A stretch of 64,000 bases of DNA from Candidatus Vogelbacteria bacterium RIFOXYD1_FULL_44_32 (GTDB lineage: Bacteria > Patescibacteriota > Minisyncoccia > Phycocordibacterales > XYD1-FULL-46-19). Below, one piece after another: positions 38,375 to 60,851 of the stretch (its first letter is position 1; each line of letters begins with the position of its first letter). Below the pieces are notes generated by a model. It did no database searches, was not told where the DNA came from, and worked only from the letters and a program-made list of their open reading frames with translations. The position numbers and the translations under genes are program-made. The stretch spans positions 9,844-73,843 of the forward strand of contig MHTJ01000003.1 of NCBI GenBank assembly GCA_001823065.1, read 5' to 3'.

Positions 38375-38407
38375 CTTTTAAAATATAATTCAAAAAAATA
38401 TCATAAT

Positions 38408-38452
38408 CCCCACCAAAAATACACCATAATTTATGGTGTATTTTTGGTGGGG
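38408..38452. promoter_or_regulatory. 45-nt perfect palindrome (22-bp arms, CCCCACCAAAAATACACCATAA-T-TTATGGTGTATTTTTGGTGGGG) upstream of the giant protein gene
   Basis: Read directly from the sequence. It lies 74 nt upstream of the 38526 start. Confidence 0.6.
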
Positions 38453-38454
38453 AT

Positions 38455-38463
38455 TTATCCACA
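38455..38463 (+). promoter_or_regulatory. perfect DnaA box TTATCCACA
   Basis: An exact 9-mer adjacent to the palindrome. Confidence 0.35.
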
Positions 38464-41500: not shown

Positions 41501-44500
41501 TTCGCTTGTTGATGCTGCCAACTTTGTCGCCACTTCCACCACCGCCACCTCCACCTTTGCTGGTGGCCTCGCGGTGGAGACGAGTGGGTTGGTGTATGAC
41601 TACTCCACCAATTTTGTGGGTATCGGTACAGCTTCGCCATCTCAAGAATTGGAAGTTATCTCCTCGGCAAGTAATAGTAATGTTTTTGTTGTTTCCGATT
41701 CCGCGGGTACTGATACCAGTATTTTCCGTATCTTTGAAGTATCTGGTGGCGGTGGGCTGGCCTCACTTTATAGTGCGTCTGATGCAGAAGCGATTAGGCT
41801 AAGTGCCACCGGTGACTCGTGGATTAACACCGACAATGATCTGGGTATTGGCACCACTTCACCCCTGGCTCGCCTCGATGTCGTCGGCTCTCTATCTGGT
41901 ACTACACCGCTATTTCAAGTTTCTAGTCTGGGCGCGAGCTATGCCACCACGACTCGAATGATAATTGATTCGAGTGGTAATGTGGGGATCGGTTCATCCG
42001 CTCCTTCTGAATTGCTCACTATTCAAGGAGCAAGTGGTGGTATATCGGGTGTTACAGCCGATACGGTGAGAGTTATGATCCATGATACCTCTAATGGTGG
42101 AACTTGGGATATTGTAAATCCGTTTGCTTCTTTTGCTTTTTCGCGGGCTGACACTAGCGGCGAAGGCGCTGGAATAGCCGCGGAAATTGGAGCCGTCCAT
42201 AATGTCTCTAGCACTGGTGGTAATGTGCGAATAGGATTTTTTACCGCTCCAACAACCTCTGGGACTATGTTGGAAAGAATGAGTATTATGGATGCTGGTG
42301 AGGTGGGTATAGGTACCACTACTCCAAGTGCTAAATTGACTGTTACATCAGATACCGCCAGTGATACTTTTGCTTCTTTGTATCTTGGAGCTATTGAAAC
42401 AGCCAGTGACACCTATCTGACTGGTCTATTTAAATCTGGTACAACCAATGGAGCTCCAGATGTGCGGATAGTAGACAAGGATACCAGTCAAGCTCGCGCT
42501 GCTTTACAGATTCAAGGTAATAATGGAAGTACCGAAATCGCTTTCTTTGGGGCCGGTGGTAATGTCGGCATCGGCACCACTACTCCCCAAAATATTTTGA
42601 CAGTAAATAGTGCTTACAATGTGAGCAATGATTCATTGGATGTGAGAATTAACAATACGACCGATAGTTATAATCGGGGGGCGGGTATCCTTTTCTCTGA
42701 CGCCTATCTTACTACTGGGCGGATAATGGGTATGCGTAGTCGGGGGGCATCACTAGCTGCCGACCCACTTTATGGCAGTATGTTTTTGGATTATCGCAGT
42801 AATTTTCATCTATTTAATAATTTAGCTGGTACGACGGAATTTATGCGGATTACTTCAGCGGGCAACATGGGGATTGGCACTACCACACCCCTTGCCCGTC
42901 TTGATGTTGTCGGCTCTCTATCCGGCACTACCCCACTCTTCCAAGTTTCCAGTCTGGGGGCCAGCTATGCTACGAGCACTAAATTTATAATTGATTCCAG
43001 TGGTAATGTCGGCATCGGTACTACCACCCCCGGCACTTCACTTGGTGTCGCGGGGGCTGGAGTCTTCGGGGCCAATGTAACAGCCAGTGTTTTCAATGCG
43101 ACCTCCACCACCGCTACCTCCACTTTTGCGGGGGGTTTGGCGGTGGAGACAAGCGGGTTGGTGTATGACTATTCAACCAATTTTGTGGGAATTGGAACCG
43201 CTAATCCTCATGGAGCTTTAGAAGTCGATGGTAGTATATATACAAGTCGTGAAAATAGAGGCATCTTCTTTAATAATTTTTTCAATGGTACTAATTACAC
43301 AACCATTAATAACGGAGAATCTGGCGTTTTAAATTTCGGTTCTTCTGGGGAGTTAAATTATAGTACCGCCGCTTCTCGCTCAGCTGGGGCAACTGGTTCG
43401 CAGACAAATATATTTACCGTTCTTAATACTGGGAATTTTGGTATCGGCACCTCCACTCCCGGTACCCAACTTGGTGTCGCTGGCGCGGGTGTCTTTGGTA
43501 CTTATGTCAATGCCAGCATATTTAATGCGACTTCTACAACCGCCACCTCCACCTTTGCTGGTGGGCTGGCAGTAGAAACCAATGGACTGGTTTACGACTA
43601 CTCCACAAATTTTGTGGGGGTTGGGACGGCTGCCCCTCAAACAAAATTCAACGTTAATACAGCTAGTGCTTCTCTAAGTTGGAATGGTATGTTTAGAAAT
43701 ACGACTCATCAGTCGGCTGTTGGTCCTGGAGTGGGAGTAAAGTTTCAGCTGGGTGGTGCCGACACTCCTTCTGAATTGCAAAAATGGGCGGGTATTGCCG
43801 GGGTCTCAGAAGTAGGCACTTATGAACAAACAGTCGCTCTAGCCTTTTATACTCGTTTGGAAGCTAGTGCGGCTGATGCGACTGAAAAAATGAGAATTAC
43901 AGGATCGGGCAATGTCGGCGTGGGTACCACCACCCCCTTAGCTCAACTCACCGCTTCGTCTACTAGTAAGATTGGTCTTATTATTGATCAGCGTGGAACT
44001 TCTGACATTGCTCAATTTCAAGATGCTGGTACTTCAATTTTTGTGATTAAAGATGGTGGCAATGTCGGTATCGGTACCACTACCCCGGGGTCGCTTTTGT
44101 CTATCGGCAACACCGGCACCGGGCCTATCAACCTGTCCGCTACCGCCACTTCCACCTTTGGTTTTGGCATCAACCTCCGCGGCGGTTGTTTCTCGATTAA
44201 TGATTCCTGTCTCGCCAGCGGTGGGTCGGGGACCCCGGTGGGTAGTAATGGAAATATTCAGTTTAATAATTCCGGTTCTTTTGGTGGGGAAAATGACTTA
44301 AACTGGAATTCTACTTTGGACATCTTACAAGTTGCAACATCTACTGGTGGTCAGATACATGTCGGATATATAAATAACAGTAATATCACAGGTACAGCAG
44401 CCGCTAATACCTATATATCGTCCGGCCATAGTTTTCTTTCAAACGGAACAAATGCGGCAACTATCTATCTTGCGGTTGGAGGCGCCGACACTTCGATTGG

Positions 44501-45899
44501 GGTTGGCCAAGGAGGAGATGGTGGAGTTGTAAATATGGTTCAGGGGGGTAGTAGTAGTGATACTAACGGTGCTGATGGCACAGTCAACATTGGTCTATCA
44601 ACCGGTAACAAAAATGCCACCGTCAATGTTTATGGGACCATCAATACTATGTTTAGAAATACTGCTACCACTAATGGCGTCTGCCATTCTGGTACTGATC
44701 TAGATACTACTGACACAACTAATACCTACTCTTTAGTTGCCTGTTCGGCGGCACCGGGTGACATCGCCGAATTTTATCCTGTATCTGACGAGGATATAGA
44801 AGCTGGCGATATTGTTGCACCATCACTAGATGAATTTTTGTATAGTGCCGAAGGTAGTGATCCTTATACTGGAGTTGTTAAATCTCTAGGCACTCAAGAT
44901 GTTTCAATAATGGACAAGGCTACTAAAGAGACGGGTTTTGTTGGGGTTGTATCTACTGGTCCATTCCAGACTTTTGGTAAGGATATTTTGAAAGCTAGAG
45001 GCAAAGACAAATCTCGAGCTATTGCCCTAGTTGGTCGGGTGCCAGTAAAAGTAAATGGCGAAGGGGGAAATATAAAGCCCGGTGACCGCATTACTATTTC
45101 ATCCGAACCAGGCATTGGGATGAAGGCTACTACCACTGGTATGACTTTGGGTGTGGCTCTCAATTCTTTTGCTGGCGAAAGTGTCAGTGATACTGGCGAA
45201 GTTATGGTATTTATAAATATGTCTTACGCCAAGATTTCCGATAGTGTCAGTGACGGTGATATTACTGAAGCTTTGTGGCAGATAGACAACACAACTGGAG
45301 ATATCAAAGCTCTAGCCTCGCTTGATTTAGGTGGTAAATCACTAAAAAACATTTCTTCACTTTCTAGTATTACTGGTAAATGGAGTATTAGTGAAGATGG
45401 CAAGCTGGTTGTTGACGAAATAGAAACCAACAAGCTGACAGTCAAAAATGGGATTACGACCCAAGATAAAACCACTGGTGATTTTTATTGTATATATATA
45501 GACAATGGCACTCTTGAAACTGAACAAGGTAGGTGTGAAGATTTGGTTGTAGAAGTAGTGGCTGAACCAGAGCCTGAGCCAGAACCACCGGCCGGTGATA
45601 GCGGTACTGGTGGCGAAACAGGAGACGGAGACGGTGATGGTGACGCTGGTGGTGATATCGGGGGCGAAGAAAATTCCAGTGGTACAACAGAAGAGGGTGG
45701 AAGCACAAGCGGTTCTGCTGGAGAAGAATCGACAGGAGACGAGGAGGCTACTACTGGAGGAGAAACTGGTGGTGGGACAGACCCCGGCGCAAGTGAATCG
45801 GATGTAGGAACTTCTGAAAGTGGAGAGCCATCAGTCGAGTCGGGTGGCGATAGTCAGACCGGTGATTCGAGTGGTGGGGAAACTACTAGTGGTGTGTAA
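38526..45899 (+). CDS. giant (2457 aa) secreted/surface fibre-like protein with Thr/Ser/Gly-rich beta-repeat arrays and an acidic low-complexity C-terminus
   Basis: It has an N-terminal hydrophobic anchor or signal. There are at least 4 copies of ATSTFAGGLAVETSGLVYDYSTN(F/K)VGIGT, many (S/G)GNVGIGTTTP...L(T/D)V motifs resembling phage tail-fibre-like repeats, 2 copies of a ~45-aa LARLDVVGSLSGTTPLFQVSSLGASYAT block, and a C-terminal EPEPEPEPPAGDSGTGGETGDGDGDGD tail. Confidence 0.8.
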   Translation: MPTSYGKLLQTIRYYVLVLKQIIFKFAFSKWISKKNILGKIRVFGVVVIILANIFTPLTASAAINQQINYQGKLTTTAGAAVTDATRSTVFSLYTASSGGTAIWTETQSVSTTDGLFSVMLGSVTSLATVNFNQTLYLGVNVASDGEMSPRKIIGAVPASFYSSDSDKLDGLTASDFLYATTTNATATITSLNVGNSTTTNATTTSLYVGSTATVAGSLVVSGTATSTFNGGINLLGTNATLTIGNNLAENNYLKFNYSSTGGGDVTGQLEGVDQMSYGFNNRAYYGGTAGVASGRTLYILDRVAGLNRGGFNASGDFYVGPSTTNYGLNVKGPNSGVTGLTVLGNGYVGIGTSTPDTDLAVFASTGTTTLKIHNSGTDLNAVLQFMEDTVGQGMELLYDANGNDLTIRGITEQTPIFTAERTGRVGIGKANPSTTLDIVGTASSTGLQVNGSGTIAGSLTLGTALGVASGGTGLTSYTLGDVIYASGTGTLAGTSTANLKTTLSLNNVENTALSTWAGTTNLTTLGTIATGLWHGTAIEDAYITKTGAWTGTFDGQEGSYYLDATNLTNFGTPFYTYFSATTTDALTQGSTNKYYADSLVNAYIHASSTIPKTYTANTFTGANTFNSTFTIGSFTGPLQAANGVVSATTSIGVVYGGTGLTSAPAYGNLLVGNASSGYTLTATSSLNLAISDTVGTLSVAKGGTGATTFGQGWIYSDGGTGALAASTSPTVNYITATSTIATSTFAGGLAVETSGLVYDYSTNKVGIGTDSPTNELHVNGNARIGELGFIANWPVVWFNAYYDDTDARAEFTTSDSAFALYHDQTNDLFKILYNAVGTAGNQVSSSNVALSVNTSGNVGIGSTTPEAKLTVQNTGTGNSFIVEDQADDTSPFVINASGNVGIGMTAPGYSLEVSNAIVSSLANGSGHPYIGIRSSGASMWYLSDNDTTNDFHLGTSLNDTKFVVDFSTGNVGIGDSTPDYTLDVTGNARFTSLVDAANFVATSTTATSTFAGGLAVETSGLVYDYSTNFVGIGTASPSQELEVISSASNSNVFVVSDSAGTDTSIFRIFEVSGGGGLASLYSASDAEAIRLSATGDSWINTDNDLGIGTTSPLARLDVVGSLSGTTPLFQVSSLGASYATTTRMIIDSSGNVGIGSSAPSELLTIQGASGGISGVTADTVRVMIHDTSNGGTWDIVNPFASFAFSRADTSGEGAGIAAEIGAVHNVSSTGGNVRIGFFTAPTTSGTMLERMSIMDAGEVGIGTTTPSAKLTVTSDTASDTFASLYLGAIETASDTYLTGLFKSGTTNGAPDVRIVDKDTSQARAALQIQGNNGSTEIAFFGAGGNVGIGTTTPQNILTVNSAYNVSNDSLDVRINNTTDSYNRGAGILFSDAYLTTGRIMGMRSRGASLAADPLYGSMFLDYRSNFHLFNNLAGTTEFMRITSAGNMGIGTTTPLARLDVVGSLSGTTPLFQVSSLGASYATSTKFIIDSSGNVGIGTTTPGTSLGVAGAGVFGANVTASVFNATSTTATSTFAGGLAVETSGLVYDYSTNFVGIGTANPHGALEVDGSIYTSRENRGIFFNNFFNGTNYTTINNGESGVLNFGSSGELNYSTAASRSAGATGSQTNIFTVLNTGNFGIGTSTPGTQLGVAGAGVFGTYVNASIFNATSTTATSTFAGGLAVETNGLVYDYSTNFVGVGTAAPQTKFNVNTASASLSWNGMFRNTTHQSAVGPGVGVKFQLGGADTPSELQKWAGIAGVSEVGTYEQTVALAFYTRLEASAADATEKMRITGSGNVGVGTTTPLAQLTASSTSKIGLIIDQRGTSDIAQFQDAGTSIFVIKDGGNVGIGTTTPGSLLSIGNTGTGPINLSATATSTFGFGINLRGGCFSINDSCLASGGSGTPVGSNGNIQFNNSGSFGGENDLNWNSTLDILQVATSTGGQIHVGYINNSNITGTAAANTYISSGHSFLSNGTNAATIYLAVGGADTSIGVGQGGDGGVVNMVQGGSSSDTNGADGTVNIGLSTGNKNATVNVYGTINTMFRNTATTNGVCHSGTDLDTTDTTNTYSLVACSAAPGDIAEFYPVSDEDIEAGDIVAPSLDEFLYSAEGSDPYTGVVKSLGTQDVSIMDKATKETGFVGVVSTGPFQTFGKDILKARGKDKSRAIALVGRVPVKVNGEGGNIKPGDRITISSEPGIGMKATTTGMTLGVALNSFAGESVSDTGEVMVFINMSYAKISDSVSDGDITEALWQIDNTTGDIKALASLDLGGKSLKNISSLSSITGKWSISEDGKLVVDEIETNKLTVKNGITTQDKTTGDFYCIYIDNGTLETEQGRCEDLVVEVVAEPEPEPEPPAGDSGTGGETGDGDGDGDAGGDIGGEENSSGTTEEGGSTSGSAGEESTGDEEATTGGETGGGTDPGASESDVGTSESGEPSVESGGDSQTGDSSGGETTSGV

Positions 45900-45998: not shown

Positions 45999-46496
45999 CT
46001 AAAGCTTACAGACTAGCCCGGCGACCGGACTGGTCATAAAAACGTAGACGGTTTCGCCGGTGGTGAGAGTGCCGGCCTCAGCGGGAGCGAGAGAGAGGAA
46101 AATAATTTTCCCTTCAATGTCAGCGGTTCCGTGGAACCGCCAAATCGAAGAGTTCTCCCTCACTGTCACTGACGTGAGCTTGGTCTCGACAACTTCTAGA
46201 GTGTCGAGGTCCCAGCCCTGGGCCTCCCACCAGTCGCGGGCGGGGGTGGTGGCTTCGATCCTCGCATTTTCCTCCGTCCGTTCGCGTCCGCGCGCGAGCT
46301 CGGATTCCGTCATCGGAATCATGCTCGAGTTGGCGGCCGCGTACACCGTGTCCATCGGTGTACCCGGGATGAAAAACGGAATCAACGCAATTGTGCCGAT
46401 AGTGATGGATACCGCCACCATCCCGGCGATCAACACCCGCATTCTCCACGTCATCTTTTTGACGGTCTTTGGGCCGTCATTGTTAACAGTCAACAT
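45999..46496 (-). CDS. GC-rich hypothetical membrane-anchored protein (165 aa from ATG 46496)
   Basis: A GGAGG SD lies 4 nt upstream of the ATG on the minus strand and there is one N-terminal TM helix. Coding DNA is ~60% GC. Confidence 0.45.
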   Translation of the reverse strand: MLTVNNDGPKTVKKMTWRMRVLIAGMVAVSITIGTIALIPFFIPGTPMDTVYAAANSSMIPMTESELARGRERTEENARIEATTPARDWWEAQGWDLDTLEVVETKLTSVTVRENSSIWRFHGTADIEGKIIFLSLAPAEAGTLTTGETVYVFMTSPVAGLVCKL

Positions 46497-46672
46497 ATGG
46501 CCTCCTTGCTGGATAACCAGCCCTAATGATAAGTGCTCTAATTTAGATAATACACAATATAGAAAAAAAGTCAAGTACAAGGGGAAAATAGGGGATAAGT
46601 GATATTTAGGTATAAAAATAGCGCCGACTCTGGGGGAGAGCCGGCGCGCTTGGCTTTGTTCTGGTCTTGAAC

Positions 46673-47545
46673 CTAGAACAAAGCCGTGAGGATTGCGTTC
46701 AGACGGGAAGCGGGACCCCGTCCGGTTGGGTACTTTTCAAACGAAACGTGTCCGTCCATGTACAGGATGTTGGCGCCACCAGGAACGTGGTTGAAATCGT
46801 CGGCTTGGGCGTCGACGATATCCCAGAGGACGTAAACATTGCTCTGGGCCGCTGAGCTTGCCGCCGCGTTGTTGATGTCGGTAATGAAAAATCGCTCAAT
46901 GCCTTCGCGCAAGCGCAAGCCTTTGGTGGCTGCTCCACCCGCGTTGGTCCAAGACAAGTCGTTATCCGCGGCCGTTGCGTTTCCGCCACCGACAGCGGTG
47001 GCCACTCCAACTAAGGCGCCGACAAATCCGGCGTCGATATAGGTGCCAACGGCGTTGGCTAGGGTCATGGCACCGTCGTTGAAGTTGACCCCGGGTACTC
47101 CAATCAGGTCTTGGAAGGCCCAACCGGAATACACCAACGAAAGCGAATCTAATTCACAGGGGGCAAACGTCCCGCTGGGGCTGTTTCCCACCTGCCACCG
47201 ACCACCGGTGAAGCGGTCGATGCCGTCGGAATCGGACGGGCAGACAAACACCTTCAAATCAGCGATGTACTCGGGGAACACTGAGTCCCCGCGCACGATG
47301 AAGTCAAACCCGGGCGACTCGCAAAAGTCCCCGTCCCTCGTCTTCGCGGTTGGGAACTTCTCGCCCTTGCTCTCGTTCGCGTACATCTTGAGCACTATTC
47401 CGATCTGCTTGAGATTGTTGGCGCAGGACGCCCGACGGGCCGCTTCGCGCGCCCGGGCCAGTGCCGGCAACAGAATGGCCGCGAGGATGCCAATGATGGC
47501 GATGACCACCAACAGTTCGATCAGGGTAAATCCCTTTTTCTTCAT
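46673..47545 (-). CDS. DUF1559 / H-X9-DG protein with type IV pilin-like (prepilin-type) N-terminal cleavage/methylation domain
   Basis: N-terminus [49 protein letters not shown] and C-terminus [15 protein letters not shown]. This family is hugely expanded in Planctomycetota/Verrucomicrobiota. It has ~60% GC and a GAAGGAG SD. Confidence 0.85.
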
Positions 47546-47696
47546 TTCTCAACACTCCTTCTTTTTCTGTATTTTACCTCACGCCAGGGCGACGCCCTTA
47601 GCAACTAGATGAGGTGTCAGTCCGCTACCAGTTATACACTTCATATAAATAATGTCAAGGTGTGAAATTTGGAATTTAAATTTGAAAATCTGGGTT

Positions 47697-47737
47697 AGCC
47701 ACCATTCATTTATTCCCCACGAGGTTCAACCTCGTGG
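47697..47737 (+). repeat. 41-bp direct repeat copy 1 (AGCCACCATTCATTTATTCCCCACGAGGTTCAACCTCGTGG) containing an 8-bp-stem hairpin
   Basis: It matches 48468-48508 at 40/41 positions. Confidence 0.8.
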
Positions 47738-47862
47738 TGGGGATCTATTTTCCAAAGTTTAACCTTGGAATTTAGCCGGTGGGTTGTAATTTCCCCCCGT
47801 TTTGGCGAAGCCAAAACGGGGGGAATTTACTTAATATTTTTTAAAATGTTACAATAATTTAA

Positions 47863-48339
47863 ATGAACAATTACGCATTTATTGATGCTCAAAATGTCCA
47901 CCTAGGCATCAAATCTTTGGGTTGGGATTTGGACTGGGGAAAATTTAGAGTTTATCTGAGAGAAAAGTATAATATTTTCACGGCCTATATTTTCATTGGA
48001 TTTATCCAGACCAACCAAGATTTATATTCCGAGCTACAGAAAGCGGGTTATATTTTGATATTTAAACCAATTATTTTAGACAACAACGGAAAAGCTAAGG
48101 GAAATTGTGACGCGGATCTAGTATTGCACTCTCTTATAGAAAAAGATAAATATGACCAGGCGGTTATTGTTACCAGTGATGGAGATTTTTATTCCCTCGT
48201 TCGCTATTTATACGAGAACGGTAAACTGGCAATGGTGCTAAGTCCTTATGCCGAAACCTGCTCCAAATTGTTAAAAAGAGAAGCTAAAGATAAGATAAAC
48301 TATATGGACAATTTGAAGGGGAAAGTTGGGCAAAAATGA
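47863..48339 (+). CDS. NYN-domain (LabA/DUF88-like) protein, predicted RNase
   Basis: Motifs FIDAQNV, GNCDADLV and VIVTSDGDF are characteristic of the NYN/PIN-like family. Confidence 0.75.
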   Translation: MNNYAFIDAQNVHLGIKSLGWDLDWGKFRVYLREKYNIFTAYIFIGFIQTNQDLYSELQKAGYILIFKPIILDNNGKAKGNCDADLVLHSLIEKDKYDQAVIVTSDGDFYSLVRYLYENGKLAMVLSPYAETCSKLLKREAKDKINYMDNLKGKVGQK

Positions 48340-48381
48340 AAACGCACCGCATAAGGACAAAACCTTATGAAGTGCGTTTTC
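48340..48381 (+). terminator. intrinsic terminator (nested hairpin AAACGCAC...GTGCGTTTT)
   Basis: The stem plus T-run lies immediately after the NYN gene stop. Confidence 0.55.
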
Positions 48382-48467
48382 TTGTGGATATATACATCAT
48401 ATAGAAATTACCCTAAAAGTCAACTATTTTGATAGGTCTGGAAATTTAGCATCGGAGAATTGGGGTC

Positions 48468-48508
48468 AGCCACCATTCATTTATTCCCCACGAGATTCAA
48501 CCTCGTGG
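48468..48508 (+). repeat. 41-bp direct repeat copy 2
   Basis: Has one mismatch relative to copy 1. Together the two copies bracket the NYN gene. Confidence 0.8.
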
Positions 48509-49026
48509 CGAAGCCCAATTTTTTGAGAGTTAAAGTAAAAACCGTTCTTGCTTAAAAAATTCCTGCTCTTCCTAGTTCTCCAATGACTCCTTTTAGATAG
48601 CTCAGCGAAGTCTGACCTCAAATGGGTAAGTTGTTGGGGGTAGCTTTTTAGGTATTGTGAGGGTAATTTAGAAGAATAAAGTTTAAAGGACAGGTATTTC
48701 TATCGGACATTTAGGAGGGGAGAAAGTAAAACAGGGGGTTTTTAGGTGGTGGGGGAGTAAAGATGGGGTCAGTTTTTAGACAAACTAAATCTTAAAAAAT
48801 ATATATTTAGACGTAATAAAAAATTTATAAACCAGCCAATAATCTTTTCCTTGACAAGTGGGCTCTAAAGTAGTAGTAATTTCAGGGTAGATAGATCTTT
48901 CCCACCTGTTTCTTTGTAGAAATTGCGGTGGGTTCAACTCAGGTGAAAGTTTGTCTTTCACTCAGTGCTCAATTTAAATTATAAATCTCACTTTGTCCTA
49001 AACGAGGCTCTAACTCGTCGTTTTTT

Positions 49027-51204
49027 GTGTATATGTTCAAAAGTATCCTAAAGACCAATAAAACAAAAATCTTCACTCTACTCCTAGTAGCGGTGGTAGT
49101 TTTTGGTGCCTTTGGTTTACCCCTGACCACTTATGCCGACGACGGTAGTGCTACCGCTTCAGTGGATTCAACCTCGACTGCGGACACTGGTGATACTGGT
49201 AGTACAGACACCGGCAGTGCGGATGCTAGTACCAGCGAAAGTGCTTCTGGTTCAGCTGATACTACTGCCACCGGCTCAACCGAAGAGCCAACGGGCACTG
49301 GAGAGGGTGTATCGGACACTGACCAGAGTGTATCGGACACAGATTCAACCACCACTTCCGGTGAGGGTGAGACTGGTACCAGTGACCAGAATACTGGCGA
49401 TACTCAAACTGGGGATAACTCTACAGGGGAAGAAGAAACCAGTGATACTGGCACGACCACTACTCCGATCTTGCCTGATACAGAAAACACTGATACTGGC
49501 ACGACTACGGAGCCGACCTTACCTGGAGATAATGGGACCACGACGGTTCCTGTGCTTCCTGAAGGGGGTGATACTGGTACGACCACCGTGGCGACTACTA
49601 CCGAGCCAGTGACTGGTGGTGAAGACCAAGATGAACTTCCTTTAGTAGAGGGATATCTTCCTCCGGCGGAAGATGTGTCAGGTGAATATGATATGACTAC
49701 ATCCGAGGACGATGGGTTGCCAGCGGTAGCTGAAGATGTTTCCGCTGAATACAACTTCACCACTCTATCGGACACTCTGCCAGCGGTGGAAGAGGAGGTC
49801 TCCCTCGAATACAATTTTAATACACTTGAATCAGGAGGGGGAACTCTAGCTGAAGATGTTTCCGCTGAGTACCACTTCACGACTCTATCGGACAATAATC
49901 CTCCAGTTGACGAGGAGTATTCCTTGGAGTACCACTTCACCACTCTATCGGACACAAATCCTCCAGTGGATGAGGAACACTCCAATGAATATTTCTTTAC
50001 GACATTGTCCGATACAAATCCTTCTAGCGAGGAGTTTTCTAATGAATACAATTTTACCACCGACGATGATGGTGGTACTAATCCACCAAATGAGGAATAT
50101 TCTAATGAGTACCAATTTGGAACTACTGGTGGGGGTGGAACAGAAACGGAAGAAGAATATTCCAATGAGTACAGCTTTACCACCGACGATGATGGTGGTA
50201 CTAATCCACCAAATGAGGAATATTCTAACGAGTACCAATTTGGAACTACTGGTGGGGGTGGAACAGAAACGGAAGAAGAATATTCCAATGAGTACAGCTT
50301 TACTACCGATAACGGTGGCTGTACCGAAAATTGTGGTGGCGGAGGTGGAGGCGGTGGTGGCGGAGGCGGGCATAATCACAAAAAGAATAAAGTTTTGCCT
50401 AGTCCGTGCATGCCACTACTCTTGAAATATATTCGCTTGGGGGCCAACAACGATCCGTATGAAGTTTACAAACTGCAGTGGTTCTTGCGGACTTTTGAAA
50501 ATATGGAAATACCTTTGTCCGGAGTGTATGACCAGACCACATATGAAGCAGTAAAAATATTCCAAGCGCGCCATGCGACAGATGTGCTCCACAGCTGGGG
50601 TATTACTGAGCCGACCGGCTATGTCTATATCACCACCCAACTGATGGTAAATTATATTTACTGTGATATTGACGAGCCACTGCGTCTAGAATTATTGCTC
50701 GAGGAACAAACGGGCACTGGTTTTGGTTATACTAAATTACCAAGTAAAGGTGATGGTCTAGACTATCTGGTCTATCCGCCAAAAACCGAGCGTACGGTGT
50801 TTGAAGGTATCACTCTTGATTTACCCGCCGAAGCAGACAAAAAAGTTGGTAATATTTTTCAACTAGCCACCGCCGGTTTTATGGATTGGCTTCAGGGTAC
50901 CGAAGGTAAGTATTGGTGGTGGTTGATTATTTTGCCGTTGGTAGTGGTTGCTGGTTATCTATATCGGCGATTGAAAGTTGAACAAACTGACAAAGAATTA
51001 GCCCAAGAGGCGCAGGCCACAATTTTGGAAGCCGACCGCGAAATGACCGCTGAACCAATTGTCGGAGCCGAGGCGGAGACACCACATAAAGAAGATGTGC
51101 CCGATGAAATTATTGCCGAATACAATGCGGCTAATGGCGGACACCAAGCTGGCCAAGAAGCCATAGTTTTGCCAGGCGAGAGTCTAGAGGACCGAGAGAG
51201 TTAA
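49027..51204 (+). CDS. secreted acidic repeat protein with a PG_binding_1-like peptidoglycan-binding domain, a single TM helix and a cytoplasmic tail
   Basis: It has a signal peptide, a Thr/Asp/Glu/Gly-rich region with ~19-aa repeats (EEYSNEYxFTTLSDTNPP), and a G12 tract. The PG-binding region reads YEVYKLQWFL...SGVYDQTTYEAVKIFQARH and the TM segment is WWWLIILPLVVVAGYLY. Confidence 0.75.
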   Translation: MYMFKSILKTNKTKIFTLLLVAVVVFGAFGLPLTTYADDGSATASVDSTSTADTGDTGSTDTGSADASTSESASGSADTTATGSTEEPTGTGEGVSDTDQSVSDTDSTTTSGEGETGTSDQNTGDTQTGDNSTGEEETSDTGTTTTPILPDTENTDTGTTTEPTLPGDNGTTTVPVLPEGGDTGTTTVATTTEPVTGGEDQDELPLVEGYLPPAEDVSGEYDMTTSEDDGLPAVAEDVSAEYNFTTLSDTLPAVEEEVSLEYNFNTLESGGGTLAEDVSAEYHFTTLSDNNPPVDEEYSLEYHFTTLSDTNPPVDEEHSNEYFFTTLSDTNPSSEEFSNEYNFTTDDDGGTNPPNEEYSNEYQFGTTGGGGTETEEEYSNEYSFTTDDDGGTNPPNEEYSNEYQFGTTGGGGTETEEEYSNEYSFTTDNGGCTENCGGGGGGGGGGGGHNHKKNKVLPSPCMPLLLKYIRLGANNDPYEVYKLQWFLRTFENMEIPLSGVYDQTTYEAVKIFQARHATDVLHSWGITEPTGYVYITTQLMVNYIYCDIDEPLRLELLLEEQTGTGFGYTKLPSKGDGLDYLVYPPKTERTVFEGITLDLPAEADKKVGNIFQLATAGFMDWLQGTEGKYWWWLIILPLVVVAGYLYRRLKVEQTDKELAQEAQATILEADREMTAEPIVGAEAETPHKEDVPDEIIAEYNAANGGHQAGQEAIVLPGESLEDRES
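50050..50289 (+). repeat. 2 x 120-bp near-perfect tandem repeat inside the 49027 gene
   Basis: NEYNFTTDDDGGTNPPNEEYSNEYQFGTTGGGGTETEEEYS is encoded twice, with only 1-2 nt differences. Confidence 0.8.
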
Positions 51205-51285: not shown

Positions 51286-54200
51286 ATGGTGTCTAACCAC
51301 TCTAAGCGGTATAAAGGCCGATATTCATTTCTAACTTACATCAAGCCAGCTTTCCTAGTGCTGGCTTTTTTATTCTTTTTCCAATTAATCACGCCAGTCG
51401 CCCTGGCTCAAGACGGGACGGTGGAGGAATCATTGCCGCTTCCTCCGGCAGAGGAGCCAGCACCCGTTCTTCCGCCGGCCGGAGGTAGTATCAGCGACCC
51501 CGAAGCTCCAGCCGAACTGGCAGCAGTTGCGGAGGAAGACAACCTAGTCGCTTTGTCACTTACTGTCACCAGTCGTTCGCCGGTAGACTTAGGCAAGCCA
51601 CCAGTGGGAACGGGCTTTAAAATTTCGGCCGACACCTCGGACGGCTCGCTGGCATATGAGTTTCCCCTGACTCTCCCTCCTGGCCGCCAGGGTTTGGCCC
51701 CGGAGCTGTCTTTGCTCTATTCTAGCCGTCCTACTAGCGCTACCTCTTTATTTGGTTACGGTTGGACGTTGTCGATTCCTTTTATCGAACGAAAAAATCT
51801 TCATGGTTCGGATCGGCTGTACGAGGAGACAGATTTCACTTCTTCCTTAAGTGGTGACTTGGTGGCCTTAGGCGGCGAGACCTATCGCGCCAAAGTTGAT
51901 GAGGGGGAGTTTCTGGTTTATGTTTTCCGCGATAATGCTTGGACAGTGACAGACAAAAGCGGCATGGTCTACCGCTTCGGCCAGACCGCCGCCGCCCGTC
52001 AGGATGATGCTGATCATCCGACCCACGTCTACAAATGGATGCTCGAGGAAGTTCGCGATCTAAACGGAAATTATGTTACCTATCGTTATGCCAAAGATTC
52101 CAACCAAATTTATCCGGAATCAATAACTTATACTCACCATGCTGATACGGCTGGTCTATATTCAATACGCTTCATCAAAACTCCACGTGATTATCCCGTC
52201 ACCTCTTGGGCGGCAGGTTTTAAAGTTGTCACCAATCATATTATAAGTGAAATAGTTGTTGAAGTCGGAGGAGGGTGGACGAGGAAGTATTCTTTCGCCT
52301 ATACCCAGCGAGACAACCAGAGTCGGTCATTGCTAACCTCAATCATCGAATGGGGAAATGACGGTTCAAAAATCATCTCTTTACCACCGACCACCTTTAC
52401 TTATCAAGTATCAGCTAAGGCCTGGGTTGAAAACAGCCGTTGGACTTTGCCAGTGTCTCTTGTCGGAGACAACTACGAAGACACGGGCGCGCGAATTGCC
52501 GACATTAATGGCGATGCTTTACCCGATATTATAACTAATAATAATGGCTCCTTTCTTAACACTGGTTACGGTGACTGGGACAGAGCCGGCCCCGAGTGGA
52601 CCCTGCCTGTGGCGTTGACGAAACCAGATGTGGTCCACCCTGGAAGTATGTTGATTGACGTTAATGGTGATGGATTGATTGATATTGCCCAAAGTCGGGA
52701 TGGTGATGAGGACCCGGATATTGTCTATTTTAATACTGGCCACGGCTGGGTGACATCGTCGACCACGGTTCCGGTCTATTTTGCGACGCGAAACGGCAGT
52801 GATAACGGAGTCCGGGTTGCCGACATTAATGGCGACGGTCTGCCTGATTTGTTGCGTTTTCATGCTGGCGACGGCGCATTGGGTAATCGTGTTTATATCA
52901 ATAATGGTTCCGGCTGGAGCGAAGATCGGTCCTGGGTTTTACCGGAGCCGACCCTTGCCGGCGACGGCCAGACTGATTTGGGCACGCGTTTTGGCGACGT
53001 TAATGGTGATGGCCTAGTCGATATCCTTCGCAAAGATGAAAGCGTTAGTAAAGTCTATTTCAATACTGGTCACGGTTGGGAACTGGCCTCTGCTTGGGTT
53101 ATTACCGCCGAGGAATTTATGAACGACGGTGGTGATCGAGGCACGCGAGTTTATGATGTCAATAGTGACGGATTTGACGATCTTGTGAATAGTCAGGCGC
53201 CAGGTGATGTTGGTGTTTATCTCAATACGGGTAGTCCTTCTAACGACTGGACTTTAGACATGAGCTGGCGTATTCCTTTCAGGTTGGTTGATTATCTTCG
53301 CGACGGGGGCCGTTACGTTGATCCGGGAACGCGGTTGGTGGATTTAAACGCTGACGGACTCCTGGACATACTTCAGTCACGATCAAGTGGCCCGAACCAG
53401 GTTTATTTTCAAGCTGGCCCACAGCCTGATCTCCTTCAGAGTGTGACATTTAGTCGGGGCGGTGGGGCGAACATTACCTATCTCTCCAGCACCTTTTATC
53501 ATCCAAATGGTCTTGGTCGTCTCAATCAAAAGTTGCCGTTTCCGATGATAACGGTTAGTACGATTACCGAGCACGATGGCCTCGGCGGTAGTGCCACTAC
53601 CGAATATAGTTATAAAAATGGCGAATATTATCACGAGAACATTCTTGACCGAAAATTTGCCGGCTTTGGCCAAGTGGAAAAAACCGATGCCATGGGCAAT
53701 ATTACTAAAACCTATTTTCACCAAGGTAATGATTCTGATTCTGGTCGCGGGGAATTTGAAGATCATTTTAGTAAAATTGGGCGAATTTATCGAGTAGAAA
53801 AATATGATTCAGCTGGCAATTTATTGACCCAAGAAATTAGTCGGTGGGGGAGGGTGGCCTTGGCTGTCAGCGCTGGCCTTGATCGATCTTTTGTTCCATT
53901 GTTAAACAATATAAAAATGACTTACGATGGCGACAATAGTCACCGTGATGTGGCTGAAGCCTATACTTATGATAATTTTGGTAATTTAGTTCGGGCCGAA
54001 AATTATGGTGAAGTGGTGGCTAGTGACGATGGAAGTTTTAGTGATCTGGGTTCTGATAAAACAACCAAGATTTTGAGTTATGTCACAAACTCAACAACGG
54101 GCATATTGGGGTTAGTAAGGATGGAAGAATTGAGAAATAACAATGGAGCCAATGTGGCGGTCAAAAAATATTATTATGATAATCTTCCCATTGGGGCAGT

Positions 54201-57192
54201 TCAACGGGGCAATTTAACCAAAACGGAAAGTTGGGTTGGGGGCACTAAATGGGTGACGACGGCCAATAGTTATGACAACCAGGGTTTACTTAAAACAAGT
54301 ACTGATGGGCGAGGATATTCCACCACTTATTTATACGACGAATTTGGCTTGTACCCTAGTACAATATCCAATTCTCTAGGGCAGGTCACGTCCTATCAAT
54401 ATGATTATGCTTCAGGGCAGGTCACTAAAGAAACTGACCCTAATGGTTTTGCTAAAATTAAAATATACGATGGGTTGGGGCGAGTGGTTACTGAAAAAGA
54501 GCAAACAGGTGGGGTGGCCGAGGTGGTGACAAAAGAAACATTTTATCGTGACGATATTGTACCTAAACTTATTCAGACCAAAAAATTTCTTCTCTTAAAT
54601 TTATCTAACGAGGTCTATAGTTATTTTGATGGTCTGGGTCGACTAGTCGAAGAGAGGACGCAAATGGAAAATGCCGGCGACTATGCTGTGACCTCGCTTA
54701 AATACAACCCAAAAGGAGAATTATTAGCTAAGACTTTGCCCTACCTGGAAACTGGTTCAAGTTATACTGCACCAACCTTTCCCGTTGGTCTTACCACTAA
54801 TTTTACTTACGACTCTCTTGGTCGGGCTAAAACGGTGAGTGATTCGCTGGGCACGACCAATTACTCTTACACCGATTGGGTGACTACAATTACCGACCCG
54901 CTTGGCAAAGTCAAAAAATATACGACCGACGCTTATGGCCGACTAATCTTGGTTGATGAGGGGTATGGCAAGGGCTTTTATCATACTCGGTATTATTATA
55001 GTCCCACGGGTAATTTAATCAGGATTATGGATGCACTGAATAATATCCGTGATTTTACTTATGATAACCTGGGGCGTCGTCTGTCGGCTCAAGACTTGCA
55101 TCAGTCGAGCGATACTAGTTTTGGTCTGTGGTCTTATACCTATGACGATAATAATAACCTGTTTTCCAGGAAAGATCCGCTCGGTCAAACTGTAAATTAT
55201 ACTTACGATGGCCTAAATCGGCCATTAATAGAAGACTATCTCGGTCGAGCCAATCCGGAGGTAAAATATACTTATGACAATTGTATAAATGGAGTGGGGC
55301 GCTTGTGTAAGGTGGCTATAGTTGGACTGTCTAAAAATTATCAATATACTCCGCGTGGTGAAGTACGGGTGGACAACAGAGTTTATAATCAAGCTTCTTA
55401 CACTACAGTCAATGCTTACGATTTAGCTGGCAATATAGTATCTATTCGTTTACCCGACAACAGTCAAATTATTTATGAATATAATTTAGTTGGAAAAGTT
55501 GAAAACATATCACGCCGTGATATTTTCAATAGCTCGGCCATTATCCCCGTTGTTTCCAATTTTGATTATAGCCCTCATGGCTTACCTGTTTATCAGCAAA
55601 ATGCTGATGGCATAAAAAATATATTTACCTATGACCCGACCAAAAGTTATCGTCTGCAGACAAAGACAACCAAAAAAGATAATATCAATTATCAATTAGT
55701 TAGTTATGAATATGATTCAGTTGGTAATATTACCAAACTCATTGATACCTCTCCTAACCTATTAGCCAAGACAGTTAGTTATACTTATGACGATCTCTAC
55801 CGACTGACCAAGGCCGTAGCGACCAACGCCAGTTCGACTTTATATTCCCAAGATTTTCTTTATGGCCCAACGGGGAACATTTTGAAAGGGTCGATGGGTA
55901 TATATGCTTACAGTGGTATCGATTTTACTTCACCTCAAGCTGTAACCTCAATTGCTTCTTCTACTTACAGCTATGATAAAAACGGCAATATGTTAACCGC
56001 CCCTAGCGCCACTTACGCTTGGGACTACAATAATCGCTTAGTTAAGAGTGTGGCCGGAACCACTACCACCACCTATGAATATGACAACGAAGGCCAACGA
56101 ATCTCTCAAAAAACTGGAGCCAGTGCTACACTGTATATTAGCCCCAACTACGATTTGACCGGTTCGGTCATTGATAAACATGTCTATGCTGGTGACCAGT
56201 TAGTCGCTACTCTCCGTACTCAAAACGGCACCACTAGCCCTTATTACACCCACTCCGACCACCTGTCCGGCACTAGTCTGGTAACTGACCAAAATAGTAA
56301 CGTGATGCAGAGCATAGACTATTTACCTTATGGTGCCAAAAGAATAAGTTCTGGAACGGATGTTTCTCAAAGAGAGTTCATTGGTCAAATTTATGATGAA
56401 TTGACTTCGCTAAGCTATCTGAATGCACGCTACTACGATGGGTCGAGAGGACAATTTCTTTCCCAAGATCCAATGTTTTGGCAACTTCCATCGACCTTGC
56501 TCGTAGATCCTCAACAGCTAAATTCTTATAGCTACGCAAGAAACAATCCTCTAATATATAAAGATCCACTAGGTCTATACAACATAAAAACTGGAGCTGT
56601 TGAAAAGGGTGATAATCTGTCTAAGATTAGAAATTTGATTAATGGGGCAAATGGAACAAGCTACTCTGTTTCTCAACTTGCGAAGCTAAATAATATATCA
56701 AATCCAGATCGTATTTATGTTGGTCAAACAATCAAACCGAATAACTTGGTCCCAGATATTACAAGATCCCTGAATAGTGTCAATCAATCACATGGAGTGC
56801 AAGCCCAGGGTCCGGTTGTTGCAGGTTCTGGTTCTACCAATTCTACTCCAGCGGCCAAGGGTATAGGGTCGGTTGAATTTGGATGGAATTTTAGGGAAGG
56901 AGGTAAATGGGATTTGAAGTCGCAGGGTTCAAATGTAGAAGGAGGAGTATTCTGCCAGAAGTCAGCTTGTGGAGGACAGAGAGCAACAAGTTATATTTAC
57001 AATTCTCAAGAAGTCTCGGGTGACGCACCAGGAAATATTCATTATGGTTATGTTGGCAAAAGAGCAGAGTATAGTGAAAGCACACTCTTATTCTTCGGTG
57101 GAGCAGTTCAAACTATTACACACCCAGGTCAATTTGGAGACCCTAGTTCTGACAAAACTTACATCATGCAGGGTTATGGGTTAAACTATTAA
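51286..57192 (+). CDS. RHS/YD-repeat polymorphic toxin with SpvB-like N-terminal domain and FG-GAP beta-propeller (Tc-toxin TcB-TcC-like fusion), C-terminal LysM plus unknown toxin domain
   Basis: Signal peptide; SpvB motif GSLAYEFPLTLPPGRQGLAPELSLLYSS; six DxNGDGxxD FG-GAP repeats; more than 20 YD repeats (YxYDxxGRL); RHS core end DPQQLNSYSYARNNPLIYKDPLGL; and then a LysM (GDNLSKIRNL...IYVGQTIKP) plus a ~110-aa Cys-containing domain. Confidence 0.9.
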   Translation: MVSNHSKRYKGRYSFLTYIKPAFLVLAFLFFFQLITPVALAQDGTVEESLPLPPAEEPAPVLPPAGGSISDPEAPAELAAVAEEDNLVALSLTVTSRSPVDLGKPPVGTGFKISADTSDGSLAYEFPLTLPPGRQGLAPELSLLYSSRPTSATSLFGYGWTLSIPFIERKNLHGSDRLYEETDFTSSLSGDLVALGGETYRAKVDEGEFLVYVFRDNAWTVTDKSGMVYRFGQTAAARQDDADHPTHVYKWMLEEVRDLNGNYVTYRYAKDSNQIYPESITYTHHADTAGLYSIRFIKTPRDYPVTSWAAGFKVVTNHIISEIVVEVGGGWTRKYSFAYTQRDNQSRSLLTSIIEWGNDGSKIISLPPTTFTYQVSAKAWVENSRWTLPVSLVGDNYEDTGARIADINGDALPDIITNNNGSFLNTGYGDWDRAGPEWTLPVALTKPDVVHPGSMLIDVNGDGLIDIAQSRDGDEDPDIVYFNTGHGWVTSSTTVPVYFATRNGSDNGVRVADINGDGLPDLLRFHAGDGALGNRVYINNGSGWSEDRSWVLPEPTLAGDGQTDLGTRFGDVNGDGLVDILRKDESVSKVYFNTGHGWELASAWVITAEEFMNDGGDRGTRVYDVNSDGFDDLVNSQAPGDVGVYLNTGSPSNDWTLDMSWRIPFRLVDYLRDGGRYVDPGTRLVDLNADGLLDILQSRSSGPNQVYFQAGPQPDLLQSVTFSRGGGANITYLSSTFYHPNGLGRLNQKLPFPMITVSTITEHDGLGGSATTEYSYKNGEYYHENILDRKFAGFGQVEKTDAMGNITKTYFHQGNDSDSGRGEFEDHFSKIGRIYRVEKYDSAGNLLTQEISRWGRVALAVSAGLDRSFVPLLNNIKMTYDGDNSHRDVAEAYTYDNFGNLVRAENYGEVVASDDGSFSDLGSDKTTKILSYVTNSTTGILGLVRMEELRNNNGANVAVKKYYYDNLPIGAVQRGNLTKTESWVGGTKWVTTANSYDNQGLLKTSTDGRGYSTTYLYDEFGLYPSTISNSLGQVTSYQYDYASGQVTKETDPNGFAKIKIYDGLGRVVTEKEQTGGVAEVVTKETFYRDDIVPKLIQTKKFLLLNLSNEVYSYFDGLGRLVEERTQMENAGDYAVTSLKYNPKGELLAKTLPYLETGSSYTAPTFPVGLTTNFTYDSLGRAKTVSDSLGTTNYSYTDWVTTITDPLGKVKKYTTDAYGRLILVDEGYGKGFYHTRYYYSPTGNLIRIMDALNNIRDFTYDNLGRRLSAQDLHQSSDTSFGLWSYTYDDNNNLFSRKDPLGQTVNYTYDGLNRPLIEDYLGRANPEVKYTYDNCINGVGRLCKVAIVGLSKNYQYTPRGEVRVDNRVYNQASYTTVNAYDLAGNIVSIRLPDNSQIIYEYNLVGKVENISRRDIFNSSAIIPVVSNFDYSPHGLPVYQQNADGIKNIFTYDPTKSYRLQTKTTKKDNINYQLVSYEYDSVGNITKLIDTSPNLLAKTVSYTYDDLYRLTKAVATNASSTLYSQDFLYGPTGNILKGSMGIYAYSGIDFTSPQAVTSIASSTYSYDKNGNMLTAPSATYAWDYNNRLVKSVAGTTTTTYEYDNEGQRISQKTGASATLYISPNYDLTGSVIDKHVYAGDQLVATLRTQNGTTSPYYTHSDHLSGTSLVTDQNSNVMQSIDYLPYGAKRISSGTDVSQREFIGQIYDELTSLSYLNARYYDGSRGQFLSQDPMFWQLPSTLLVDPQQLNSYSYARNNPLIYKDPLGLYNIKTGAVEKGDNLSKIRNLINGANGTSYSVSQLAKLNNISNPDRIYVGQTIKPNNLVPDITRSLNSVNQSHGVQAQGPVVAGSGSTNSTPAAKGIGSVEFGWNFREGGKWDLKSQGSNVEGGVFCQKSACGGQRATSYIYNSQEVSGDAPGNIHYGYVGKRAEYSESTLLFFGGAVQTITHPGQFGDPSSDKTYIMQGYGLNY
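52501..53375 (+). other. FG-GAP/integrin-like beta-propeller repeat region of the RHS protein
   Basis: Repeats DINGDALPDI, DVNGDGLIDI, DINGDGLPDL, DVNGDGLVDI, DVNSDGFDDL and DLNADGLLDI. Confidence 0.7.
56579..57189 (+). other. hypervariable C-terminal toxin module (CT1) downstream of the RHS DPLGL autoproteolysis motif; LysM at ~56590-56730
   Basis: Sequence similarity to the orphan copies stops exactly after YKDP(L/T)G. Confidence 0.7.
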
Positions 57193-57201
57193 TAAATTGA
57201 G

Positions 57202-57777
57202 ATGAAAAAATATTCATTCAAAAAAATAATTACTATTTTAGCTGTTGCACTAGTACTGGTAATTCTAATTTACTATATTCTTGGTGAGTTAGGAGGAAAT
57301 GCTTTCCGTATCCGAGCAGGTTTGTTGATTCATAAAGAAGAATTTAATGAATTTGTAGACAAGTTCCTTAATCAAAATTCTATAAAAAATATTCAAACGT
57401 CTGTTGGTTTCTTTAGCACTACGGAAAGTATAAATAGTTGTAGCCGCTATCCTGAAGAAGGCGATACACCTTGGACTTGTAGTGAGGGGGAATACCCAAA
57501 TATCGTATCAATAAATCTTGCGAGTATTAATGCAGTTTTAGAACATGAACATATCCCGAATGAAGAATACCAATACTTTGTTGATTTTATGGAAAGATAT
57601 AAATTCAACGGTGTGGGTAAGAATAATAATGACAGATCTGTCGAAATAGAAGATAAACTAAAAGGCTTGAGATATTACGAACAACAAAATTCAAGTAAGC
57701 TTACTGAAAATAATGAGTATCTTTTTGTTAAAAAAATTAATGAACATTGGTTTTACTATGTGAGAGATTGGAATTAG
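57202..57777 (+). CDS. putative cognate immunity protein for CT1 (N-terminal TM anchor)
   Basis: A small ORF 10 nt downstream of the toxin gene. Both position and size are typical of RHS immunity genes. Confidence 0.5.
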   Translation: MKKYSFKKIITILAVALVLVILIYYILGELGGNAFRIRAGLLIHKEEFNEFVDKFLNQNSIKNIQTSVGFFSTTESINSCSRYPEEGDTPWTCSEGEYPNIVSINLASINAVLEHEHIPNEEYQYFVDFMERYKFNGVGKNNNDRSVEIEDKLKGLRYYEQQNSSKLTENNEYLFVKKINEHWFYYVRDWN

Positions 57778-57789
57778 GATAAATAGAGA

Positions 57790-58881: not shown

Positions 58882-58886
58882 ATATC

Positions 58887-59396: not shown

Positions 59397-59408
59397 ATAT
59401 CTCTACAA

Positions 59409-59723: not shown

Positions 59724-59804
59724 ATAACCCAAACTATAATAAGAACATCGTTGCTAATCAATTGAAAAAATTTATTAAATCATTTAATAAATCAAAGTAA
59801 AAAT

Positions 59805-60822: not shown

Positions 60823-60851
60823 CGTCTATATGTTAATATTAAAAGCAAAAT

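Follow-up and report, generated by a model that had tools for sequence, protein, structure and literature searches.

Hairpin-bearing direct repeats around an NYN-domain gene of Candidatus Vogelbacteria: a possible link to Patescibacterial Y1 transposases and a predicted antisense RNA

The object of this analysis is a 64,000-nucleotide stretch of contig MHTJ01000003.1 (the whole stretch is called the window below), in which a gene for an NYN-domain protein lies between two hairpin-bearing direct repeats. The protein has an identical counterpart in Candidatus Vogelbacteria bacterium RIFOXYD1_FULL_44_32 (Patescibacteria). The locus is not an assembly chimera, because it was recovered in three other assemblies; as these are 99.95-100% identical to it, they are uninformative on polymorphism. 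A preliminary description of this DNA regarded the repeats either as attachment-type borders of a gene cassette or as a repeated cis-regulatory RNA element, and the spot, next to a foreign GC-rich segment, as a possible integration hotspot. The features of the locus are collected in Table 1.

Table 1. Features of the NYN locus and of the adjoining GC-rich island (positions in the window)
Feature	Position	Strand	Comment
GC-rich island with two minus-strand genes	46000..47560	-	53-63% GC versus ~43%; ends ~125 nt before repeat copy 1
Prepilin-type DUF1559/H-X9-DG protein	46673-47545	-	Gene of the island, divergent from the NYN gene
Repeat copy 1	47684..47751	+	Head GGGTTAGCCACCATTCATTTATTCC from 47692
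Palindromic unit of copy 1, CCACGAGG-TTCAA-CCTCGTGG	47717-47737		CC/GG extension across a T bulge
Second palindromic unit, CCCCCCGTTTTGGC-GAA-GCCAAAACGGGGGG	47786..47830	undefined	Third hairpin, between copy 1 and the NYN gene
NYN promoter, TTTACT, 18 nt, TG-extended TACAAT	47826..47855	+	Ends 7 nt before ATG
NYN-domain protein, 158 aa, predicted PIN-like nuclease	47863..48339	+	PF01936
Predicted antisense RNA, ~59 nt	48331..48389	-	5' tail AUCCACAAG, long hairpin, U-rich tail
Long hairpin over the NYN stop codon	48338..48381	undefined	10-bp outer stem, internal loop, 7-bp inner stem, 6-nt loop
Sigma-70-type promoter TTGACT-16-TATGAT	48396..48423	-	Points into the hairpin
Repeat copy 2	48455..48522	+	Head AATTGGGGTCAGCCACCATTCATTTATTCC, GGGG from 48462
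Palindromic unit of copy 2	48488-48508		Top pair broken by G>A
Three decayed GGGG(G)T..TTTTTAG units	48620..48790	+	Include AAAGATGGGGTCAGTTTTTAG at 48759-48779

The enclosed gene was originally assigned to the NYN family, and the assignment holds: the translated open reading frame (ORF) matches PF01936 with 51.8 bits at a cut-off of 24.2 (E = 1.6e-13). Five aspartates (D8, D83, D85, D106, and D108), typical of PIN-like/NYN nucleases, are invariant among 19 NYN homologs. Weak matches were also obtained to the PADLOC NYN model (E = 5.4e-8) and to PDB entry 2QIP, a protein of unknown function. The protein has more than 1600 relatives, the best 120 of which are 69-100% identical to it; the viral collection contains two distant NYN relatives only, with 48-49% identity. 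A close relative of the source organism is represented by the 3-kb contig L004, whose NYN protein is 96% identical. At positions 874-1365 of this contig the gene caller read through the TGA stop codon of the NYN gene, apparently under an alternative genetic code, and reported a protein of 163 rather than 158 aa; hence, the protein cluster P0002 carries an artefactual tail of five residues.

The repeats were initially described as two hairpin-bearing direct copies of 41 bp that differ by one base. This is correct: the 41-mer has exactly two sites in the window, 47697-47737 (no mismatches) and 48468-48508 (one mismatch), where none is expected by chance. The similarity of the two copies reaches 68 nt with 84% identity (47684-47751 versus 48455-48522, a spacing of 771 nt), and the best 46 nt are 95.7% identical. 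Each copy consists of a head of ~30 nt (AAT-GGGGTYAGCCACCATTCATTTATTCC; also given as AAT-GGGGTYAGCCACCATTYATTTATTCC) and a GC-rich palindromic unit, and the pattern CCACGAGR-TTCAA-CCTCGTGG occurs once in each copy, with no third site in the window. Both copies are intergenic, with GC stems of 7-8 bp, and all their heads and hairpins are on the plus strand. The hairpins are more stable than those of shuffled sequences, with z-scores of -4.4 and -4.0 for the DNA and of -2.3 and -3.2 for the 68-nt RNA of copies 1 and 2, respectively. In copy 2, the G>A substitution leaves a 7-bp stem with a 7-nt loop and is not compensated; this copy has in addition an outer stem, AATTGGG/CCCAATT, followed by a T6 run.

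According to the preliminary description, the repeats flank exactly one gene with its terminator. Indeed, a single NYN gene is enclosed; the same interval, however, also contains a third hairpin and two promoters, that of the gene itself and one on the minus strand (48423-48396). The third hairpin, which had been placed at 47790-47822, is real; it occupies 47786-47830 and has 21-nt arms that are 95% complementary (DNA z = -8.7).

The repeat is modular, composed of a ~30-nt head and an exchangeable palindromic unit, as follows from the fact that in other Patescibacteria the head is joined to a different hairpin or to none. In L004, the 19-mer AATTGGGGTCAGCCACCAT matches the start of window copy 2 exactly but is joined to another hairpin, CCCCCGTTTTGGC..GCCAAAACGGGGG, in place of CCACGAGG; this hairpin (CCCCCGTTTTGGCGAAGCCAAAACGGGGG) is the counterpart of the 47786-47830 unit of the window. 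A second head-plus-hairpin element of L004 carries a hairpin of the latter type in the opposite orientation. The head was detected in two further organisms by a metagenome scan. On contig L044, the head alone (TAATGGGGTCAGCCACCATTTATTTATTCC) occupies a 20-nt gap between priA and another ORF, which are convergent, and on contig L041 the head is located behind AAATGGGGTCACAT. The head of L044 (positions 2867-2893, TGGGGTCAGCCACCATTTATTTATTCC), which fills the whole of this gap, is close to dnaA, in a terminator-like position and without a hairpin.

The metagenome scan, with GGGTYAGCCACCATNNANNNATNCC, yielded six stretches, the source contig not being among them; four are GC-rich, coding-like chance matches, and two look genuine. 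No head matches were found in the viral collection. The scan of a genome collection with AGCCACCATTCATTTATT was discounted, as it gave 19 matches versus ~17 expected by chance; the source genome does not belong to this collection, and the sole match in Minisyncoccia falls within a coding region resembling that of an aminoacyl-tRNA synthetase.

The DNA of L004 is 90.7% identical to that of the window, over 47794-48423 only. The conserved segment ends inside the repeat pair on both sides, at 47794 and at 48423, the latter position being the -35 box of the minus-strand promoter. L004 has HicAB genes and a Y1 transposase gene where the window has other DNA, confirming that the locus is variable. 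This contig also links the repeats to mobile DNA. It contains seven GGGGTCAG sites in 3 kb, with 0.04 expected; six of the seven are AAAGGGGTCAGGTACCTTTTT, interleaved with head elements. Two AAAGGGGTCAGGTACCTTTTT copies flank, in inverted orientation, a gene for a 223-aa Y1 transposase (PF01797, E = 5.7e-16). The three decayed units of the window resemble the AAAGGGGTCAGGTACCTTTTT repeats and are located at the position equivalent to that of the L004 Y1 gene and its repeats.

The Y1 protein of L004 scores 68.5 bits (E = 5.4e-19) against the NCBIfam model NF047646, which describes transposases associated with repetitive extragenic palindromes (REPs) and has a cut-off of 80. It has more than 8000 relatives of ~224 aa, and the top source-named matches are nearly all labelled as the Patescibacteria group. 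Two other Y1 lineages, 62-65% identical to the L004 protein, occur in many metagenome samples in a constant gene context. In both of them, GGGGTCAGGTACCTTTT is situated 27-44 nt upstream of ATG, and an inverted copy overlaps the stop codon; in one of the two, 7-8 tandem copies of the motif are found upstream. The first 13 nt of the window head, GGGGTCAGCCACC, differ from the Y1 motif GGGGTCAGGTACC at 2 of 13 positions. Thus, only two bases separate the head from a motif flanking the Y1 genes of Patescibacteria, and the suggested tie between the repeats and mobile-DNA machinery was borne out.

Several further observations concern these Y1 loci. The Y1 stop codon is embedded in the inverted GGGGTCAGGTACC (AAA GGT ACC TGA CCCC) on contigs L045 (2800-2975, 3660-3676) and L055 (2958, 3679). 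The Y1 gene of L045 is preceded by 7-8 tandem AATAAAGGGGTCAGGTACCTTTTAG units, and the assemblies of L046 and L048 break into runs of N at the tandem-unit region. In the viral collection, GGGGTCAGGTACCTTTT is present on two near-identical contigs only.

Since the head of the window repeats nearly matches a motif that flanks Y1 genes and is arrayed beside them, we interpret the repeats as satellites of a Patescibacterial Y1 (IS200/RAYT-like) system, similar to REPs and to bacterial interspersed mosaic elements (BIMEs), or as decayed ends of such a system, and the NYN gene as part of a separate mobile module. We give this explanation a somewhat better than even chance. The head would be the sequence recognized by the Y1 enzyme, and the hairpin would provide a single-strand DNA structure of the kind that Y1 enzymes bind. 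The copies may have been spread or duplicated locally either by the Y1 enzyme or by recombination between copies, and they may have built up at a variable position beside a GC-rich island from another phylum. On this view, the repeats surround the NYN gene as a result of variable accumulation in the intergenic stretch and do not delimit the gene. The mobility of the repeats by means of Y1 enzymes is what we infer from these relationships.

The proposed satellites share several traits with the REP/BIME systems of Proteobacteria and their REP-associated tyrosine transposases (RAYTs). In both cases the units are short and extragenic, with an imperfect palindrome next to a conserved short motif, and different units form mosaic clusters like those of BIMEs. 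A single-copy gene of the Y1/HUH type that has a fixed context and is flanked by inverted copies of a motif multiplying nearby is the signature of RAYT/REP systems (PMC5581495, PMC3116915), and the Patescibacterial Y1 genes with GGGGTCAGGTACC flanks resemble RAYT genes in these respects. The differences are as follows. The copy number in the 64-kb window is low and local, and inverted REP doublets (REPINs) were not seen; the Y1 motif is conserved across very divergent Patescibacterial members, rather than being species-specific; the head can lack a palindrome; and the Y1 protein scores below the RAYT cut-off. A literature search yielded no paper that describes the GGGGTCAGGTACC motif or REP/RAYT systems in Patescibacteria.

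Several points weigh against this explanation. A tblastn search with a Y1 query found neither a Y1 gene nor a relic of one in the window, and the CCACC variant of the head was not seen to flank any Y1 gene; single-copy Y1 genes between inverted copies were observed in relatives, with the GGGGTCAGGTACC variant. The window contains two exact copies, one related hairpin, and the decayed units, all within 1.2 kb; this copy number is low and local, whereas classical REPs are defined by copies that are numerous and dispersed. The relation of the head to the Y1 motif is suggested by 11 identical bases of 13 and by co-occurrence in L004 and L041. Finally, in the window as well as in L004, same-strand GGGGTCAG-type elements, albeit of different subtypes, lie on either side of the NYN module, and this bracketing could be something other than an accident.

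The latter observation sustains the cassette explanation, according to which the repeats are left and right ends, of the attL/attR type or of the IS200/IS605 type, of a non-autonomous element, and the NYN module is cargo moved in trans by a recombinase or Y1 transposase encoded elsewhere. Direct repeats with hairpins surround one gene unit, and both hairpins are on one strand, an arrangement shared with IS608; the NYN module of L004 also lies between same-strand GGGGTCAG-type repeats (at 729 and 1477), beside a Y1 transposase gene; and the NYN gene is clearly mobile across contexts. However, the flanking elements of L004 belong to a different subtype, and the conserved DNA stops inside the repeats rather than at them. 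The GGGGTCAG-type element is absent from all ten distinct NYN loci outside this lineage, of which eight are on cellular contigs with a total of 57 kb and two are viral (L062 and L063). The scanned ORFs of the window include no recombinase or transposase, no empty site or variant is seen in the three other assemblies of the same strain, and the flanking copies of Y1 genes are inverted, not direct. We consider this explanation quite unlikely; that is, the earlier view of the repeats as cassette borders was not supported, while its other part, the relation of the repeats to mobile DNA in a variable spot, was supported.

Comparison with known mobile systems gives a similar picture. With the IS200/IS605 insertion sequences and palindrome-associated transposable elements (PATEs), the locus shares the Y1 family, same-strand subterminal hairpins at both ends, the absence of a requirement for terminal inverted repeats, and the possibility of cargo. 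In contrast to them, the Patescibacterial Y1 genes carry GGGGTCAGGTACC in inverted orientation and look single-copy, and the window is devoid of a Y1 gene. Movement of the repeat-to-repeat segment as a unit is not supported, given that conserved DNA stops inside the repeats, that the other NYN loci lack such ends, and that the four assemblies show no polymorphism. Traits of miniature inverted-repeat transposable elements, namely terminal inverted repeats or duplicated flanks, were not seen at the ends of the 68-nt unit. ARAGORN detected no tRNA or tmRNA gene in the window, and the repeat is not the 3' part of such a gene. The locus resembles integron cassettes in having one small gene with a structured repeat behind it and a similar repeat on its other side; unlike integrons, there is neither an integrase among the scanned ORFs nor an array, the repeat being present in two copies, and the NYN gene has its own promoter. 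The attC assignment was also rejected at the level of sites: there is no R''/L''...L'/R' arrangement, the only match to RYYYAAC (GTTCAAC/ATTCAAC) is in the hairpin loop, not at the base of the stem, and GTTAGCC/GTCAGCC do not fit GTTRRRY.

Another explanation is that the repeats are cis-acting elements at the RNA or transcription level, that is, terminators, insulators, or mRNA-stabilizing 3' structures, whose similarity is kept by selection. REP elements themselves are known to have secondary roles of this sort. The stability of the hairpins, the outer stem and T6 run of copy 2, and the head of L044 placed exactly between convergent genes, a typical position for a terminator, are consistent with such a role. 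On the other hand, a scan of the repeats against Rfam, the structure-aware search that had been proposed in the preliminary description, retrieved no family at either gathering or permissive thresholds, sub-threshold matches to hairpin- and miRNA-like models being meaningless. The terminator scan detected nothing in copy 2, and its only pick in copy 1 was a weak sub-stem of 5 bp. The single difference in the stem is uncompensated, and the head occurs with different hairpins or without any. Moreover, neither copy is obviously transcribed, because copy 1 sits between divergent genes and copy 2 is downstream of the NYN terminator and upstream of the antisense promoter. A cis-regulatory role, as was initially suggested, therefore seems unlikely to us.

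In contrast to the repeats, the NYN gene belongs to a unit that recurs in many places. The NYN module of ~580 nt (47826-48423) comprises a promoter, the ORF, a bidirectional hairpin, and a convergent, near-consensus antisense promoter. The NYN mRNA is probably leaderless, because the promoter ends just upstream of the start codon: the TG-extended -10 box is at 47847-47855 and ATG at 47863. Most of the 11 loci inspected upstream likewise have a TG-extended -10 box, at a distance of 6-9 nt from the start codon. On the other side, ~85 nt of non-coding DNA 3' of the ORF are conserved. The genomic contexts are diverse. NYN loci were observed after rpoC (L007, L034), between ftsW and murG (L036), and after ribosomal-protein genes (L033). 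The neighbors in L010 are genes for RNase III and an SMC-type ATPase, and in L066 a methyltransferase gene. The loci of L064 and L068 belong to integrative elements with genes for ArdC, a phage replication protein, and a resolvase or integrase.

All 12 distinct NYN loci, among them two homologs from viral contigs, have the minus-strand promoter and the hairpin at the same position. The consensus of the promoter is TTGaca and TAtaaT; the spacer is 16-18 nt long in 11 of the 12 loci, and its sequence is not conserved. The long hairpin starts ~10 nt downstream of this promoter. Among the 12 loci, 93.1% of cells in the alignment of the stem are paired, and 13 of 17 pairs change on both sides, a result reached in none of 500 shuffles; slid controls give 39-54%. 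The hairpin contains 13 G.U pairs when read on the minus strand versus two on the plus strand, which points to selection acting on the antisense transcript.

Taken together, the promoter and the hairpin predict a cis-encoded antisense RNA that overlaps the 3' end of the NYN mRNA; its ends are placed according to the promoter and the terminator. The 48338-48381 hairpin is both the body and the terminator of this RNA, and it likely terminates the NYN mRNA as well. The fold of the predicted RNA has a minimum free energy of -26.8 kcal/mol (z = -7.1), and the homologous RNAs fold alike. Rfam contains no family for this RNA, and a literature search found no paper on a toxin-antitoxin pair formed by an NYN protein and an antisense RNA.

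In its architecture, the unit corresponds to a type-I-like toxin-antitoxin or addiction module. Like the described type I systems (txpA/RatA, bsrG/SR4, and fst/RNAII, as well as SymE/SymR and RalR/RalA of the nuclease type), the NYN module is a compact mobile unit with two promoters, and its short antisense RNA is predicted to share a bidirectional terminator with the mRNA and to overlap its 3' end. Unlike them, the NYN protein is a soluble nuclease of 158 aa and not a small membrane or hydrophobic peptide, and none of the described families matches. SymE and RalR are the known exceptions among type I systems with nuclease-type toxins. Under this interpretation, the antisense RNA would be transcribed, the NYN protein would be toxic, and the RNA would regulate it. 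The NYN gene and its ~60-nt antisense RNA may then form an undescribed type-I-like toxin-antitoxin, addiction, or defense module with a toxin of the RNase type, widespread and horizontally mobile in Patescibacteria, which inserts into housekeeping operons (rpoBC, ftsW-murG, and ribosomal-protein genes) and integrative elements, and which in the present genome is possibly flanked by ends that a Y1 transposase can use. We propose this as a whole tentatively, as a real possibility that falls short of an even chance.

Upstream of copy 1, the window contains the GC-rich island that had been described as a foreign segment. This is supported by its prepilin-type gene: the best non-self relatives are from Hydrogenedentes, with at most 60% identity, and none of the source-named matches is Patescibacterial, which indicates transfer from another phylum. 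The other gene of the island, an ORF of 193 aa (45999-46580, minus strand), has no family match. A minus-strand promoter-like site at 47633-47660 (TTGACA-16-TATAAC), followed downstream by the ribosome-binding site GAAGGAG, appears to drive the foreign pilin-like gene. It is 32 nt from copy 1 and thus mirrors the antisense promoter, which is 39 nt from copy 2.

The placement of the two promoters, each shortly before a repeat copy, together with patchy similarity upstream of both copies, allows for one more scenario, namely a segmental duplication. In this scenario, the NYN module and its repeat were once in tandem with a period of 771 nt, and the first NYN gene was replaced by GC-rich DNA that now uses the old antisense promoter. 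However, the score of the upstream local alignment was reached by 88 of 2000 shuffles and is not significant, and a profile built of the 3' ends of 12 modules matches the promoter part only (E = 46). The relic of a second NYN module upstream of copy 1 is thus unsupported by either approach, and we regard the scenario as very improbable.

Downstream of the locus (49027-51204), there is a gene for a secreted protein of 725 aa with tandem acidic repeats of 20 and 41 residues (..EEYSNEY.FTT..), 14 consecutive glycines, and a peptidoglycan-binding domain; the N-terminus of the protein is only weakly conserved in L004, despite the 90.7% identity of the adjoining NYN module. The region 51286-61300 contains an RHS/YD-shell polymorphic toxin of 1968 aa (SpvB, TcdB_toxin_midN, and Ntox44) and then orphan toxin-tip modules. 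The latter include repeats that are 92-93% identical (56078/57794 and 57952/60858), and the junction DP..N.Y.Y..NNP is found three times (56506, 58267, and 61149). On the other side of the island, the ORF at 38526-45899 encodes a protein of 2457 aa with no Pfam match, at least 13 motifs of the GNVGIGTTTP type, and larger internal repeats, which is probably a surface fiber. Just upstream of this gene, at 38405-38455, there is a perfect palindrome with 25-nt arms separated by 1 nt (AATCCCCACCAAAAATACACCATAA / TTATGGTGTATTTTTGGTGGGGATT).

As a variant of REP/RAYT-like systems in an unusual phylum, the repeats are of modest interest. They suggest the presence of a REP/RAYT-like system in Patescibacteria, whose genomes are tiny and poor in repeats, with the motif GGGGTCAGGTACC conserved phylum-wide and with modular derivatives. 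The island with its Hydrogenedentes-like donor may offer a clue to the organisms with which this episymbiont is physically associated. The module formed by the NYN gene and the antisense RNA is of more interest than the repeats. If it is a toxin-antitoxin or defense unit, it would represent a selfish element that is common in an uncultivated phylum and a rare example of a type-I-style system with a nuclease toxin.

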